Below, piece after piece: positions 612-23,177 of a DNA stretch of 64,000 nt (position 1 is the first letter of the stretch; every line of letters starts with the position of its first letter). The DNA lies in sequence record PQ850613.1; one strand, written 5' to 3'. Source of the stretch: Escherichia phage KarlSchell_Bas89. Made by a program: the position numbers and the translations under genes. Below the pieces are notes generated by a model. It was not told where the DNA came from. It searched no databases and saw nothing but the letters and a program-made list of their open reading frames with translations.

Positions 612-830
612 ATGAAAATGATGAAACAAATCAGTTATGGGCTAGCTTGTGTTGCTACCGGTTTTGCTGTGTCAGTGGCTGTTCCTGTTAACGCAGTGCA
701 TCCTCTGGTAACACAACCCGCACCAATTGAGAAGTTAAGTGCATCATGTAAGCAGCGTACAATTCAAAATAATCTTGTAGTTATTTGTCCGGACTCTGAT
801 TCTAGTGCTCTGAGAAACATGCTTCAGTAA
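612..830 (+). CDS. small secreted protein (N-terminal signal peptide)
   Basis: ATG with upstream AGGAG; hydrophobic N-terminus MKMMKQISYGLACVATGFAVSVAVPVNA; sits next to the lysozyme gene. Confidence 0.4.
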   Translation: MKMMKQISYGLACVATGFAVSVAVPVNAVHPLVTQPAPIEKLSASCKQRTIQNNLVVICPDSDSSALRNMLQ

Positions 831-860: not shown

Positions 861-1352
861 ATGGATAATGTCGCATTGCCACCGATACAACTGAGCTTAA
901 GCCCAGAAGGGATGGAATTCATCATGAAGCATGAAGGTATGAGAACTCGTGCTTACCAAGATTCCGCAGGTATCTGGACGATATGTGTTGGGGCTACGCG
1001 CGATATGAATGGGTATCCAGTTAGACAGGGATTAACGTATTCTATAGAGGATTGTCTAGCTCTGCTAGATAGAGACACACAAGACTCTGTTCGTGCCACT
1101 CAGAAAAATATTAGGGTTCCTTTGTTAACCCACGAGTTTGATGCTCTCACCTCTTTCAACTTTAACGTTGGTGGTGGGGCCTTATCAACTTCTAAACTTA
1201 GGAAAGTTATTAACGGAGATGTGAAGGGTGATGTTTATTCTGAGTTCCTCCGTTGGGATAAAATTACAGTTAAAGGTAAGAAGATTAGCAGTCCGGGATT
1301 GAAGAATCGTAGAACTGCTGAAGCTGACCTTTACACTGAAGGTAAATACTAA
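861..1352 (+). CDS. lysozyme, GH24 (T4 lysozyme-like)
   Basis: E-x8-D-x5-T catalytic spacing in EGMRTRAYQDSAGIWTICVG, as in T4 lysozyme; strong RBS GGAGG. Confidence 0.75.
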   Translation: MDNVALPPIQLSLSPEGMEFIMKHEGMRTRAYQDSAGIWTICVGATRDMNGYPVRQGLTYSIEDCLALLDRDTQDSVRATQKNIRVPLLTHEFDALTSFNFNVGGGALSTSKLRKVINGDVKGDVYSEFLRWDKITVKGKKISSPGLKNRRTAEADLYTEGKY

Positions 1353-20135: not shown

Positions 20136-20342
20136 TTATACACTGATCAAGTAAATAGCTGTTTCAGGGTTTGGTGTGTTTTGTTGTGGTGTGCCGGAGA
20201 TACGAATCCACTCATCATTTTCTGGTTCGTAATACAACCAAGCATCTGTGAATTTGAAAGTTCTTCCAAACACTTTATTATCATGTTCCCAAATTACGTG
20301 AACATTCCTAGTATCAGGTAGAACTGATTGCGCTCTAATCAT
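20136..20342 (-). CDS. hypothetical protein
   Basis: ORF only. Confidence 0.3.
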   Translation of the reverse strand: MIRAQSVLPDTRNVHVIWEHDNKVFGRTFKFTDAWLYYEPENDEWIRISGTPQQNTPNPETAIYLISV

Positions 20343-20599
20343 TGAATACCTCTTTCTTTCAGAGCTTCTAACAACCCATTGTGGTTAGCAGCACACTCTG
20401 GGTACTGGTCTTGATACCACTCTAGTGTCGTTAATATTGCAACACCTTGTGGACTTTTTAGCATCGGCAAATCTACACGACACTTAGTTTTTAGATTTGT
20501 TGGTAATGGCATTAACTGCCTGCTGTTGTCGCTCGTTGAACAGCTTGACGTACTCATCACTAGCGCAAACATTATAAAAAACTGGCTTAGTCTTTTCAT
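20339..20599 (-). CDS. candidate o-spanin (lipoprotein) overlapping the 3' end of the next gene
   Basis: Internal Met gives MKRLSQFFIMFALVMSTSSC (signal peptide plus Cys); different frame from the overlapping gene. Confidence 0.3.
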   Translation of the reverse strand: MKRLSQFFIMFALVMSTSSCSTSDNSRQLMPLPTNLKTKCRVDLPMLKSPQGVAILTTLEWYQDQYPECAANHNGLLEALKERGIQ

Positions 20600-20858
20600 A
20601 GTGCATCTCTTTGTAAACTGTCTCAGTGTTCTTCTTCCAGTCTGATAGACCATTGAGAACTCTCATAGCAACATCATCAGCTGCTTTGTTTCTCTCTATC
20701 TCTAATTCTTGCTGATGTTTCTCTTTGTCCAGATTATTACTATCTGTTTGATATTCGTTAAACTTCATACCACCAAAGAATACAAGAGCTGAAAAGATGA
20801 TGAACCCTAAGTTATCACTTAACGTGTTTTGCATATTATCTCCAACGAAAAAAGCCAC
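20484..20858 (-). CDS. candidate i-spanin (N-terminal TM helix plus coiled coil)
   Basis: LGFIIFSALVFFGG hydrophobic helix then charged helical region. Confidence 0.35.
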   Translation of the reverse strand: MAFFVGDNMQNTLSDNLGFIIFSALVFFGGMKFNEYQTDSNNLDKEKHQQELEIERNKAADDVAMRVLNGLSDWKKNTETVYKEMHYEKTKPVFYNVCASDEYVKLFNERQQQAVNAITNKSKN

Positions 20859-20870
20859 CCGAAGGTGGCT
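20846..20870 (-). terminator. rho-independent terminator (minus strand)
   Basis: AGCCACC-CGAA-GGTGGCT hairpin with A run on plus side (T run on minus), downstream of SSB gene. Confidence 0.65.
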
Positions 20871-20892
20871 AAACTGTTACAAGGAGAGATAC

Positions 20893-21633
20893 TTAGAATG
20901 GAGATTCGTCTTCTTCAAAAGTAGACTCAGGCTCACGATCAATAGTAGGGATAGAAGCAACCGGCTCTTTCTGCTCGTTCTCAGAAGCCTTAGTGACTTC
21001 ACGACCAGCGAGAGGAATGTTCTTAGCGTCATTAGCTTGGGTAAGCAGGTTACGCTGGAATGGGAAGATTACCTGATAAGCAGCTACGTTATCATCTGTT
21101 TCAGCATACGGTTCGAAGAAGACCAGAGGACTGCGAGCAGCAGCAACAGCTTCACGATACTTGGTAGGAATCGGAGTAATCTGTTTGATAGAGTTCTTAA
21201 CTTCACCAGCTTTGTTGGTGTAAGAGTTGATTAGAACGTTTACAGGCTGACCTAACAGCATTTCTTTAAACCAAGCCAAATCACCTTTCAGTGCTTGGAT
21301 GCTAGGGTCAACCATCTTAATTAGGTTGAGAATACCAGAGTTCTTAGCTCGTGGGTTTACATCGAAGCTCTTAAACTGACATGCAGGGCGCGGGTCAAGA
21401 GCATTGCCTTCAGAGTCCTTACCGGTTGCATCAACACCAATCAGCTCAAACGCCAAGTCCATACGGAAAGCTGGGTTCTTAGGAGTAACTGCTTTAGTCT
21501 TAGGGTCAACCCAAGGGTCACGATTGTGAACACCAAGACCAACAACACGAACGATACGAGCTTCGTACTCACCATCAGGGATTACGTCGTAGTTGGATTT
21601 ACGGGAAACGGACATAGTTGGGATAGAAGACAT
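20893..21633 (-). CDS. single-stranded DNA-binding protein (T7 gp2.5-like)
   Basis: Acidic C-terminal tail ending EEDESPF; position in replication module. Confidence 0.55.
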   Translation of the reverse strand: MSSIPTMSVSRKSNYDVIPDGEYEARIVRVVGLGVHNRDPWVDPKTKAVTPKNPAFRMDLAFELIGVDATGKDSEGNALDPRPACQFKSFDVNPRAKNSGILNLIKMVDPSIQALKGDLAWFKEMLLGQPVNVLINSYTNKAGEVKNSIKQITPIPTKYREAVAAARSPLVFFEPYAETDDNVAAYQVIFPFQRNLLTQANDAKNIPLAGREVTKASENEQKEPVASIPTIDREPESTFEEDESPF

Positions 21634-21680
21634 ATTTTAATTTCCTTATTTAATTTAAGATTGTTGCTCACTTTGAGCGG

Positions 21681-21699
21681 TTATGTATAGTATACATTA
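21681..21699. promoter_or_regulatory. near-palindromic TTATGTATA-g-TATACATTA element (back-to-back promoter-like 9-mers)
   Basis: Minus-strand TAATGTATA about 58 nt upstream of SSB start; one-mismatch copy on plus strand. Confidence 0.4.
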
Positions 21700-21762
21700 C
21701 ACCTATACCGATAAGGGTGCTATATAGTATAAGCAGTAGTGGTAGTAGATATTGACTACTAG

Positions 21763-21771
21763 TAATGTATA
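21763..21771 (+). promoter_or_regulatory. TAATGTATA promoter-like element facing an ORF-less region
   Basis: Exact 9-mer; downstream 280 nt has hairpins but no plus-strand ORF. Confidence 0.35.
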
Positions 21772-22048
21772 TATTGTATAGATGATAATTCTATTGCAGG
21801 CTTGTATATTGGGCAATTCTCAGAATCCCTTGCAAGTACCGAAGGGCAGGAGACACCTGCGAGATAAAAATAGAGAATTAAGGAATCCTTGATTTAGGTT
21901 GTAGGGACTCCTAGGGACTTTGATTCTCTATTTAAAAGAAATATTAATTACTTACTACCTAAATAGTTAACTAACTTACTTAAAACCTTTTCAATAAGAA
22001 TTGCTAAAAGGATAATTCCTAAGAAAGCTAATAAGAGAAAGGCATAAG

Positions 22049-22300
22049 TTACCATTCCATCATTCCTTTTAATCTAGATTCTTCTACTATTCGCTGATAG
22101 AGTAAGTTAGACTCAGCTTGATCTTTTAACATTTTACTGTATTGATCTCTGAGACTATCTTTATAAACAACAGGTGGTTTAAATAGTGATGATACTTTGT
22201 TCTTTTCTTCTTTCATCAAAAGTCTTCCTAATCTCTTGCAGAGATACAGCTTTAAAGTTGATTTGTTCCATCGAGGTACAGAAGTATCTCCAATCATCAA
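22049..22300 (-). CDS. hypothetical protein
   Basis: ORF, overlaps 3' end of next gene in another frame. Confidence 0.25.
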   Translation of the reverse strand: MMIGDTSVPRWNKSTLKLYLCKRLGRLLMKEEKNKVSSLFKPPVVYKDSLRDQYSKMLKDQAESNLLYQRIVEESRLKGMMEW

Positions 22301-22685
22301 TCACATGATTGTGAGTATGAGCATAGATGTTGAACTTCCCTCTCATTTCATCAGCGTGAATGGGAATGTGAGTCACCCAAAACTCTTTGTACTTGAAGTC
22401 ACCTGATACAGTTCTGAACACTTTCATAATCTGTGGTAACAAATCCAGTCTGTCATGATTCCCTAAGACAAGATGCTTCTCGCCTTTAATCTCATAGATG
22501 ATATCCAGTGCATATGGTTCAAACACCCAATCACCAGTGAAGAAAGTCTTATCTCGTTTAGTCACATGGTCAAACGCTGAAAGAACTGCTTTATCGTGCT
22601 CTTCAATACTACCAAACTGTTTACGAAACTTGCAGATATTACGATGACCTAAGTGACCATCTCCTGCGAAATATACTTCAGCCAT
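22179..22685 (-). CDS. metallophosphoesterase (calcineurin-like)
   Basis: GDGHLGH, GDWV, LGNHD, AHTHNH motifs. Confidence 0.7.
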   Translation of the reverse strand: MAEVYFAGDGHLGHRNICKFRKQFGSIEEHDKAVLSAFDHVTKRDKTFFTGDWVFEPYALDIIYEIKGEKHLVLGNHDRLDLLPQIMKVFRTVSGDFKYKEFWVTHIPIHADEMRGKFNIYAHTHNHVIDDWRYFCTSMEQINFKAVSLQEIRKTFDERRKEQSIITI

Positions 22686-22694
22686 AAAGACCTC

Positions 22695-23177
22695 TTAGAT
22701 AGTTAATTTGTGATCTTCCTCCGCTCTGTTTCTGACAGAGACGGCTTCCTCTAGGGTTGAGAAAGTTCCTAGGTATTTAGTTTTACCTTTAATGTGTATG
22801 TTGGCTATGTACTTCCCTCTTGAATTGAGGTACACACCCTTAGCCCCTGAGGTGTTGTTAGAATTCAAACCCTTATTCCAAGAGTTATTCTCGTTGTTAA
22901 CCTCTCTAAGGTTGCCTATGGAATCATTGGAAGGATTTCGATCAATGTGGTCTATTTGATCTTTAGGTAAAACGCCATTAGCAAAATACCAAATGATATG
23001 GTATCTGTAAATAGCTCTTCCTTTCAATCGAATAAACACTCTTCCATCCTTTTTTGAAGTTCCTGCCTCATCACCTCGCCTGCATTTTGTTCCGTTGTGA
23101 ATTCTCCAGAACACTTTCCCAGATGATAAATCACAAACAAAGAACTCATCCAGAAGATCTTCTATCATATCATGCAA
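22695..23177 (-). CDS. HNH homing endonuclease with AP2-like DNA-binding domain
   Basis: IDHIDRNPSNDSIGNLREVNNENN plus YLGTFSTLEEAVSVRNRA. Confidence 0.75.
   Translation of the reverse strand: MHDMIEDLLDEFFVCDLSSGKVFWRIHNGTKCRRGDEAGTSKKDGRVFIRLKGRAIYRYHIIWYFANGVLPKDQIDHIDRNPSNDSIGNLREVNNENNSWNKGLNSNNTSGAKGVYLNSRGKYIANIHIKGKTKYLGTFSTLEEAVSVRNRAEEDHKLTI

Follow-up and report, generated by a model that had tools for sequence, protein, structure and literature searches.

A predicted two-component spanin of the overlapped type among the middle genes of a phiEco32-like Escherichia phage

The spanins of phage lambda are an inner-membrane type-II protein, Rz (153 aa), and an outer-membrane lipoprotein, the proline-rich Rz1 (mature part 40 aa), whose gene uses the +1 frame and is wholly embedded in that of Rz; periplasmic Cys residues are present, and the two genes adjoin S and R. 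The P2 pair LysB/LysC is the prototype of the overlapped arrangement, in which the o-spanin gene starts inside the i-spanin gene and reaches past its end, and its genes lie within the lysis cassette. The T4 proteins PseT.3 and PseT.2 (117 and 83 aa) are encoded by separated genes that are not near those of the holin and endolysin, and they have been shown experimentally to complement lambda Rz/Rz1. The closest described systems are the pairs of phages phiEco32, KBNP1711, NJ01 and ECBP2, which are listed in SpaninDB as overlapped i-/o-spanins with overlaps of 115-116 nt (116 nt in phiEco32 and KBNP1711) (Kongari et al. 2018, PMC6139136). Both genes are also annotated in the GenBank record of phage Paul (MN045231; CPT_Paul_036 as i-spanin and CPT_Paul_035 as o-spanin), and a 2026 paper on the Kuravirus phage ZCEC16 called the same two ORFs overlapping spanins (PMC13417854). 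No experimental test of any member of this phiEco32-like spanin family was found in the searched literature.

The window, i.e., the whole 64-kb stretch of Escherichia phage KarlSchell_Bas89 (PQ850613.1) that was analysed here, belongs to a phiEco32-like podophage (Gordonclarkvirinae) and is 97.9% identical at the DNA level to Escherichia phage EP335. A sequence-only reading had proposed that two overlapping ORFs in this DNA form an i-spanin/o-spanin pair. Both ORFs are present on the minus strand (20484-20858 and 20339-20653), and the proposal agrees with a PHROG 1152 match, the SpaninDB listing, the annotation of phage Paul and the Kuravirus paper. Judging from topology signals, gene context and analogy, on which the assignment of function is based, the two genes very probably encode the two-component spanin of this phage in the overlapped arrangement. 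The closest relatives of the window are Escherichia phages, implying a Gram-negative host, and the phage has its own endolysin, as expected for a spanin-encoding phage. The sequence-level features that define the two-component class (Summer 2007; Kongari 2018) are all supported for the predicted pair. The pair is an already known and ordinary feature, having been catalogued in SpaninDB in 2018.

The window has the same genes as phiEco32, KBNP1711, NJ01 and ECBP2, with the same sizes (116 aa and 86 aa, the latter 67 aa when mature), on the minus strand and with the same ribosome-binding sites. A tblastn comparison with these four phages covered (almost) the full length of both proteins; the i-spanin identities were 75.9-94.8% and those of the o-spanin 75.6-88.4%, and comparison of the window sequences with SpaninDB entries pointed to families JH2 (i-spanin) and NJ01 (o-spanin). 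The differences are the residues in front of the lipidated Cys, which are TSS in the window but MSS, MSA or LSA in these phages, and several substitutions in the mature o-spanin (KTKC, LKSPQG, YPEC). Phage Paul shares the gene order, with a 246/248-aa gene, a terminator, the i-spanin and the overlapping o-spanin leading towards the sigma factor gene; however, its i-spanin and o-spanin are 89% and 80% identical to those of the window, and an extra macro-domain (Appr-1-p) gene lies between its o-spanin and sigma factor genes. The i-spanins of Felix O1-like phages (Felixounavirus) are about 30% identical, belong to the same family JH2 and are overlapped with an o-spanin, but those o-spanins are of another family, and the phages are myoviruses with other gene neighbourhoods. 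P2 LysB/LysC and T4 PseT.3/PseT.2 are set apart in other families by the SpaninDB listing. The T4 pair resembles the window's in protein size, in the two Cys residues of the o-spanin and in the distance from the other lysis genes, although the T4 i-spanin lacks a periplasmic Cys. With lambda the pair shares the layout of two membrane-anchored proteins read from two frames and the periplasmic Cys, but there is no sequence similarity. A Pfam search with both proteins gave no match at E <= 0.1; therefore, "Rz-like" is a functional label for this pair and does not imply homology to lambda Rz.

The i-spanin gene (20484-20834, minus strand) was taken from the ORF list and encodes 116 aa plus a stop codon (MQNTLSDNLGFIIFSALVFFGGMKFNEYQ...NKSKN). 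It matches PHROG 1152 "Rz-like spanin" with E = 1.3e-35, and the protein is 94.8% identical to the KBNP1711 i-spanin of SpaninDB. Its short N-terminus leads into a single transmembrane helix, after which comes a charged domain (about 91 residues). This domain has one conserved cysteine, Cys90, which is present in each homologue examined; a conserved motif of the i-spanin is KPVFYNVCASDEY. The helix was placed at residues 9-23 (LGFIIFSALVFFGGM; codons at 20766-20810, minus strand), the best 15-residue Kyte-Doolittle window (2.25), and no other hydrophobic segment was found in the protein. TMpred in the phage Paul record gives a transmembrane domain at residues 8-23 of the homologue. The N-terminus, MQNTLSDN, has no positive charge, as the SpaninDB curators also remarked (PMC6139136), and the N-in/C-out orientation is predicted from the charge difference across the helix instead of the positive-inside rule. 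A single-sequence AlphaFold model was all-helical with low confidence (pLDDT 56), and a PDB sequence search with the i-spanin gave no meaningful match.

The i-spanin had initially been read as a 124-aa ORF with an N-terminal transmembrane helix and a charged region. The ORF, the helix and the charged domain were all recovered, but the start is better placed downstream. The GTG at 20858 sits in the stem of a conserved terminator hairpin, whereas the ATG at 20834 follows a ribosome-binding site, GGAGA, 5 nt upstream (20839-20843, minus strand, by direct reading), for which SpaninDB lists the same Shine-Dalgarno sequence (PMC6139136). The 12 relatives compared all have the GGAG core of this site (as GGGG in Bas93), and the equivalent of the ATG is used in all 12 as well as in two curated annotations. 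The most likely i-spanin start is the ATG at 20834, giving 116 aa.

The o-spanin gene (20339-20599, minus strand; ORF list) encodes 86 aa plus a stop codon and lies in a longer ORF of 104 aa (20339-20653), whose internal Met opens MKRLSQFFIMFALVMSTSSC. The protein begins with MKRLSQ; the sequence up to the predicted cleavage site is MKRLSQFFIMFALVMSTSS, followed by CSTSDNSRQ...KERGIQ, and the mature lipoprotein would have 67 aa. It matches PHROG 2425 (E = 2.4e-24), which has no functional label, and it is 88.4% identical to the KBNP1711 o-spanin of SpaninDB. The suggested internal-Met signal peptide with a Cys was recovered by hydropathy and pattern matching: residues 1-19 (20543-20599, minus strand) contain K2, R3 and the hydrophobic core FFIMFALVM, and are followed by the predicted lipid-attachment Cys20 (codon TGT, 20540-20542, minus strand) in the lipobox T-S-S-C with Ser21 at +2. 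This Ser, with Asp absent at +2, fits outer-membrane sorting. In the phage Paul record, LipoP gives an SpII score of 18.03 and cleavage between residues 19 and 20 for a protein 80% identical to that of the window.

The lipobox had been called non-canonical, and it does fall outside the classic consensus [LVI][ASTVI][GAS]C, the only deviation being Thr at -3. TSSC nevertheless matches the PROSITE-style lipoprotein pattern and [ILMFTV][^REKD][GAS]C, and the deviation is no real problem, since Thr at -3 recurs in EP335 (TSSC), Bas93 (TSAC) and Salmonella phage SW5 (TSGC). A lipobox deviating still more, AWAC, works by experiment (Kongari et al., PMC6139136). The mature part of the o-spanin contains Cys40 and Cys69, both conserved, and the motif EWYQ..Y..CA..HNGL near the C-terminus, so that, together with Cys90 of the i-spanin, periplasmic Cys residues are available for disulfide-linked complexes, a near-universal feature of two-component spanins. 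A weak ribosome-binding site, GAGA, was read from the sequence upstream of the o-spanin ATG (20606-20609, minus strand), and SpaninDB gives the same "aaaGAGatgcact" as the o-spanin Shine-Dalgarno sequence (PMC6139136).

The 3' end of the i-spanin ORF is overlapped in another frame, as had been noticed, by a dual-coding region of 116 nt (20484-20599, minus strand) in which the o-frame is +1 relative to the i-frame. The o-spanin extends 145 nt beyond the i-spanin stop. The architecture is therefore "overlapped", and the "embedded" Rz/Rz1-type arrangement of the sequence-only reading does not apply. The open +1 frame itself was dropped as evidence in favour of conservation and selection, since it stays open in 56% of synonymous-codon shuffles and is unsurprising.

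For the conservation analysis, an IMG/VR scan with the o-spanin yielded only 4 loci, and GenBank phage records were used instead, the window being compared with 12 loci from Gordonclarkvirinae. All 12 relatives retain both frames, the 116-nt overlap, Cys20 and Ser21, and only TSS, MSS, MSA, LSA and TSA occur before the Cys. Cys20 and Ser21 occur without exception in 8 homologues, the most distant at 36% identity, and Cys69 is invariant in the distant o-spanin homologues. The dN/dS was 0.098 for the non-overlapping part of the i-spanin and 0.089 for the o-frame downstream of the i-spanin stop. Nucleotide diversity was 0.147 where only the i-frame is coding and 0.200 where only the o-frame is, against 0.090 in the overlap, and the dS of the i-frame fell from 0.846 to 0.380 inside the overlap. 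This lower diversity and lower dS indicate a double constraint on the overlap. Diversity by codon position tracks the i-frame before the overlap and the o-frame after it, and drops inside. Relative to EP335, divergence is highest in the C-terminal part of the o-spanin, where 200 nt contain 23 differences; the adjacent 1.8 kb contain none.

The neighbours of the pair are middle genes for a sigma factor, a dNMP kinase and an exonuclease, and the pair probably shares an operon with the phage sigma-factor gene. A terminator scan revealed an intrinsic terminator, AGCCACC-TTCG-GGTGGCT plus T6 (20847-20870, minus strand; hairpin at 20853-20870), between the upstream 246-aa gene and the i-spanin; the hairpin lies in a 56-nt stretch with a folding energy of -15.3 kcal/mol. 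The terminator is kept in all 12 relatives compared and is annotated as such in phage Paul. At the other end, the o-spanin stop overlaps the start of the next gene (68 aa, 20136-20342) in the tetranucleotide ATGA (20339-20342, minus strand, direct reading), which suggests translational coupling of the two genes in one operon. The presumed functional partners of the spanins are a holin-family gene (612-830, plus strand; PHROG 11161 "holin", E = 1.8e-46; holin in EP335) and an endolysin gene (861-1352, plus strand; Pfam PF00959 Phage_lysozyme, E = 4.5e-32; PHROG 7 "endolysin"), the latter flanked by tail genes. Both are on the opposite strand and about 19 kb from the pair (19.5 kb for the holin gene), and in the window the pair is thus outside a lysis cassette, the typical though not obligatory place for spanin genes. 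The remark that the pair is away from the lysozyme was correct (19 kb), and such a location is the rule for this phage group, with T4 PseT.3/PseT.2 as a precedent.

No spanin was found beside the holin and endolysin, among the neighbouring ORFs and the tail genes on both sides, and the annotation of EP335 contained no other spanin candidate. A six-frame scan of the window for lipoprotein signals, run from each start codon, revealed the o-spanin as the only ATG-started ORF with such a signal. Three further matches had TTG or GTG starts, two inside a same-strand listed ORF and one opposite a listed gene, and were judged to be chance; the sole good lipobox among them, LGSC (51489-51659), is embedded in a 130-aa gene without a transmembrane domain. 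Either the lack of a predicted lipoprotein signal or the presence of real spanins elsewhere had been named as grounds for rejecting the pair. Signals are in fact predicted for close homologues, and neither the window nor the EP335 annotation offered another candidate. Only 6 clusters, mostly truncated 57-aa gene calls, were retrieved when a large protein database was searched with the o-spanin, and they gave no usable alignment for predicting its structure.

More distant homologues were found in other genomic settings. In Proteus phage PM-CJR, Morganella phage Henu15 and Salmonella phage SW5, o-spanin homologues (37-45% identity) share DNA with an i-spanin homologue at its 3' end, and these overlapping pairs come directly after the holin and endolysin genes, at the end of the lysis cassette. 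In Yersinia phage P778, an o-spanin homologue (36%) lies just after the endolysin. The lipoboxes of the distant homologues are canonical or nearly so (IAGC, TSGC, MSAC). In phage SU7, the pair is split by an HNH homing endonuclease, and the o-spanin has a new lipoprotein signal with the lipobox LMAC.

These homologues bear on whether the pair might be a membrane protein and an outer-membrane lipoprotein with a role other than lysis, such as superinfection exclusion or receptor masking in the manner of T5 Llp or Cor. The location among middle genes, 19 kb from the holin and endolysin, would suit such a role, as would the unlabelled PHROG 2425. However, three unrelated phage groups have homologues of both proteins at the end of holin-endolysin cassettes, and in a fourth case an o-spanin homologue comes after an endolysin. 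The phage has a Gram-negative host and yet would be left with no other spanin candidate, the overlapped pairing and the conserved periplasmic Cys match those of spanins, and the T4 spanin genes are likewise unlinked to other lysis genes. Considering this, we regard a non-lysis role as very unlikely.

Two doubts concern the o-spanin in particular. Its frame might be open by chance over the i-spanin 3' end, with only a downstream 57-aa piece, or nothing, being translated: the shuffling result allows for this, most gene callers start downstream (57 aa in the protein database and RefSeq), the ribosome-binding site is weak, and the dN/dS of the overlap read in the o-frame is about 0.9. We give this explanation scarcely any credence, because all 12 relatives compared keep the start (Met-Lys/Arg), the hydrophobic core and the Cys-Ser, with the lipid-attachment Cys invariant even in the most distant homologues, and because diversity and dS are both lower in the overlap. 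Moreover, the 57-aa product would have no targeting signal at all, and SU7, which lost the overlap, nevertheless retained a lipoprotein signal, a new one. Alternatively, the relatives could have a working spanin while the o-spanin of this isolate is crippled by Thr at -3. TSSC does lie outside the classic consensus, and the C-terminal part of the protein is the most diverged stretch relative to EP335, but this too is a very slim prospect: EP335, Bas93 and SW5, all viable isolated phages, have the same Thr, the more deviant AWAC works experimentally (Kongari et al., PMC6139136), and the ORF is intact and under purifying selection.

By analogy with lambda Rz/Rz1 and T4 PseT.3/PseT.2, the i-spanin would be an inner-membrane protein whose N-terminus stays inside the cell while its C-terminal domain projects into the periplasm. 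The o-spanin would receive its lipid, be processed by signal peptidase II and reach the inner leaflet of the outer membrane through the Lol system. The periplasmic domains of the two proteins would then bind each other, forming complexes that bridge the periplasm through the peptidoglycan mesh and are probably stabilised by disulfide bonds. Once the holin (612-830) releases the endolysin (861-1352) and the peptidoglycan is destroyed, the freed complexes would break the outer membrane open, most likely through its fusion with the inner membrane, as the final step of lysis. Transcription of the pair probably starts at upstream promoters and reads through the terminator at 20847-20870; one candidate promoter is the phage-sigma (gp36)-type motif TAATGTATA at about 21691-21699. 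We tentatively propose, as a possibility that we hold at somewhat less than even chances, that three things apply: the placement of the pair directly behind the strictly conserved terminator, in the sigma-factor operon, may itself be regulatory and give low, read-through-limited expression from the middle phase, so that complexes assemble well before the late holin and endolysin; separately, Thr at -3 may be a functional non-classic variant; and divergence or recombination may be locally concentrated in the C-terminal part of the o-spanin.

Since overlapping genes are avoided by gene callers, most GenBank/RefSeq entries for this phage group lack the full-length o-spanin or shorten it to 57 aa (41 aa in EP335), and large protein databases likewise contain truncated versions. 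For these E. coli phages, which are used therapeutically, the set of lysis genes consequently looks incomplete. The spanin pair opens no new biological question, and the main value of the present analysis is in annotation quality: the correct annotation of a 116-aa and an 86-aa protein completes the set of holin, endolysin and spanins.

Both ORFs behind the sequence-only reading, which proposed an embedded i-spanin/o-spanin pair, were present exactly as described: 20484-20858 (-), 124 aa from a GTG start, and 20339-20653 (-), 104 aa with the internal MKRLSQFFIMFALVMSTSSC. However, the GTG is probably not the start, because an ATG at 20834 (-) has the ribosome-binding site GGAGA 5 nt ahead of it, whereas the GTG at 20858 lies within the 3' arm of a GC-rich terminator hairpin. 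From this ATG, the i-spanin has 116 aa (20484-20834, -). The intrinsic terminator found upstream of the ATG on the same strand in a terminator scan (AGCCACC-TTCG-GGTGGCT followed by six T) lies in a 56-nt stretch with a folding energy of -15.3 kcal/mol, is kept in all 12 relatives compared, and has a terminator annotated at the same element in the record of phage Paul. For the o-spanin, the start is ATG 20599 (-), with a weak GAGA ahead of it, which gives 86 aa (20339-20599, -); its stop overlaps the start of the next gene in an ATGA (20339-20342, -). The two genes share 116 nt (20484-20599, -), with the o-spanin frame at +1 to that of the i-spanin, and the o-spanin extends 145 nt past the i-spanin stop. 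The arrangement is therefore not embedded but "overlapped" in the terms of Summer and Kongari.

The i-spanin has the expected N-terminal hydrophobic helix, its one hydrophobic segment (residues 9-23, Kyte-Doolittle 2.25), followed by a charge-rich region of 91 residues (14 K+R, 16 D+E) with one Cys (C90). A single-sequence AlphaFold model was all-helical, but its confidence is low (pLDDT 56) and it carries no weight here. The o-spanin signal consists of K2, R3, the hydrophobic core FFIMFALVM and the lipobox T-S-S|C20, and the mature protein of 67 aa contains Cys40 and Cys69. The residue at +2 is Ser, so there is no Lol-avoidance Asp. The lipobox, described earlier as non-canonical, does depart from the classic [LVI][ASTVI][GAS]C, but at -3 alone, and it fits a PROSITE-style lipoprotein pattern and [ILMFTV][^REKD][GAS]C.

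To analyze conservation, diversity and selection, the locus was taken from 12 related phages (EP335, KBNP1711, NJ01, 172-1, Paul, ECBP2, EC.W14-3, Bas93, 101114UKE3, IME267 and two IMG/VR genomes). Over the 4 kb around the pair, DNA identity was 97.9% with Escherichia phage EP335, 95.7% with KBNP1711, and about 81-83% with 172-1, NJ01, SU10 and other Gordonclarkvirinae, the phiEco32-like prolate podophages. In all 12 relatives, the i-spanin has 115-116 aa, and the o-spanin has 86 aa with the start M-[KR]-[KR]-L, the hydrophobic core and Cys20-Ser21, the lipobox varying among TSS, MSS, MSA, LSA and TSA. Outside the overlap, diversity was highest at the third codon position of the respective frame (i-spanin, 0.274 versus 0.103 and 0.065 at positions 1 and 2; o-spanin, 0.372, with 0.040 at position 2). 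Overall diversity was lower in the overlap (0.090) than in the i-spanin-only (0.147) and o-spanin-only (0.200) parts. The Nei-Gojobori dN/dS was 0.098 and 0.089 in these single-coding parts, respectively, and dS in the i-spanin frame fell from 0.846 outside the overlap to 0.380 within it. Purifying selection thus acts on both genes, and the overlap is under a double constraint. The open +1 frame by itself is not significant, staying open in 56% of synonymous shuffles. Compared with EP335, there were no differences over 20900-22700 and 23 in 20300-20500, where the o-spanin gene continues past the overlap; farther downstream, each 100 nt carries 1-7 differences. The sharp mosaic boundary (within 20300-22700) coincides with the terminator and suggests either recombination or a faster-evolving periplasmic domain of the o-spanin.

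A tblastn search with the o-spanin revealed weaker homologues outside the phage group, with 36-45% identity in the alignment. In Proteus phage PM-CJR, Morganella phage Henu15 and the P2-like Salmonella phage SW5, the homologue overlaps the 3' end of a small gene that encodes an N-terminal transmembrane domain and directly follows the holin and endolysin genes. In Yersinia phage P778, it comes after the endolysin and is annotated as o-spanin. The lipoboxes of these distant homologues are IAGC, TSGC and MSAC. Cys20, Ser21, Cys69 and several residues of a C-terminal-proximal EWYQ..Y..CA..HNGL motif were invariant in all eight aligned o-spanins, and the i-spanin shares the motif KPVF/EPVY-xN-x-C-x-x-D-D/E-Y with the upstream proteins of the Proteus, Morganella and Salmonella phages. 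In Escherichia phage SU7 (MZ342906), the overlapped pair has become separated (L010, the SU7 locus, 646-1683), the i-spanin (646-987) and the o-spanin (1417-1683) now being on either side of an inserted gene (1083-1469) for an HNH_3+AP2 homing endonuclease, paralleling the T5 versus Shivani/phiR201 case of Kongari et al. (PMC6139136). The SU7 o-spanin has a different, new lipoprotein signal (MLTKKKQKSCLVIFLASSLMAC, lipobox LMAC) encoded inside the endonuclease 3' end, which is difficult to account for if lipoprotein targeting is dispensable. The insertion is probably also present in EK010 and Bas86, because tblastn reaches only o-spanin residues 27-86 in these two phages.

The endolysin (Pfam Phage_lysozyme, 861-1352) and a 72-aa holin-family gene (PHROG 11161, 612-830, +) have a tail-fibre gene on one side and a tail gene on the other. 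We found no spanin-like ORF among their neighbouring ORFs and no other spanin in the complete EP335 annotation. In a six-frame scan of the window with all start codons, the present o-spanin ORF had the only ATG-started lipoprotein-type signal. Together, these checks revealed no real spanins elsewhere. Three other hits have TTG or GTG starts and lie inside or opposite other listed ORFs. One of them, a GTG-started 56-aa ORF at 51489-51659 (-) with a good lipobox (MSSGRKKKISLLFVMLGSC), is embedded in another frame of a 130-aa gene (51508-51900); because this host gene encodes no transmembrane domain, the ORF probably arose by chance and is not a second, embedded o-spanin. The single hydrophobic stretch of the holin-family protein is N-terminal and resembles a cleavable signal peptide (...AVPVNA|VHP), not a typical holin transmembrane pattern, as also reported for the homologue in phage ZCEC16 (PMC13417854). 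The true holin of the phage group may be another protein.

Neither spanin protein matched Pfam, and the pair is thus not a sequence homologue of lambda Rz/Rz1. It has all sequence-testable features of two-component spanins but one, linkage to a lysis cassette, and that one is no requirement: in T4, too, the spanin genes lie away from the holin and endolysin (PMC6139136). The feature is real, and the spanin-pair reading itself is well supported. The sequence displays a predicted inner-membrane-anchor signal on one protein and a predicted outer-membrane lipoprotein signal on the other; Cys residues that are putatively periplasmic are conserved, the overlap is dual-coding, and selection is purifying. 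If the pair works like lambda Rz/Rz1 and T4 PseT.3/PseT.2, the subunits would bind across the periplasm via the peptidoglycan mesh, and after holin and endolysin action the complexes would disrupt the outer membrane, probably through its fusion with the inner one. In terms of the clusters defined for phiEco32 and SU10, the pair is among the middle genes. With 18 nt between it and the conserved terminator upstream, there is no space for a promoter of the pair itself, and the nearest phage-sigma-type motif, TAATGTATA (about 21691-21699, -), is upstream of the preceding 246-aa gene (20893-21633, -); read-through of the terminator is therefore the likely source of its transcription. The 246-aa gene is preceded by this motif, of the phiEco32 gp36 promoter type, and followed by the terminator; its product had no Pfam or PDB match and has an acidic C-terminal tail (...FEEDESPF) reminiscent of those of single-stranded-DNA-binding proteins.

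The pair is already catalogued. SpaninDB (Kongari et al. 2018) lists PhiEco32, KBNP1711, NJ01 and ECBP2 as having overlapped two-component spanins, with the i-spanins in family JH2 alongside Felix O1-like phages and the o-spanins in a family of their own, NJ01; high identity places the present proteins in these two families. Its supplementary tables give 116 aa for the i-spanin, whose N-terminus has a net negative charge, 86 aa for the o-spanin (67 aa when mature), overlaps of 115-116 nt (116 for phiEco32 and KBNP1711), Shine-Dalgarno sequences that match those found here, and SMSS, TMSA and NLSA as lipoboxes (PMC6139136). The GenBank record of phage Paul annotates both genes (LipoP SpII score 18.03), and a 2026 paper on Kuravirus phage ZCEC16 identified ORFs 35 and 36 as overlapping i-/o-spanins by SignalP 6 and DeepTMHMM (PMC13417854). 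No experimental test of the phiEco32-like spanin family was found in the literature searched. Among the sampled phage records, only a few (Paul, IMEP8, SU7) annotate the o-spanin. In EP335, RefSeq names the counterpart of the 116-aa ORF "Rz-like spanin" and reduces the overlapping frame to a truncated hypothetical protein of 41 aa. A 57-aa truncation is all of the o-spanin that most database records and protein collections contain (proteins P0002-P0005 from the protein database search; CDS at locus coordinates 888-1061 in the further loci L011-L015), and another Kuravirus paper names the truncated ORF o-spanin. Automatic gene calling systematically starts the gene downstream of the overlap, so that the signal peptide is lost, and the practical value of the finding for these phages is annotation repair.
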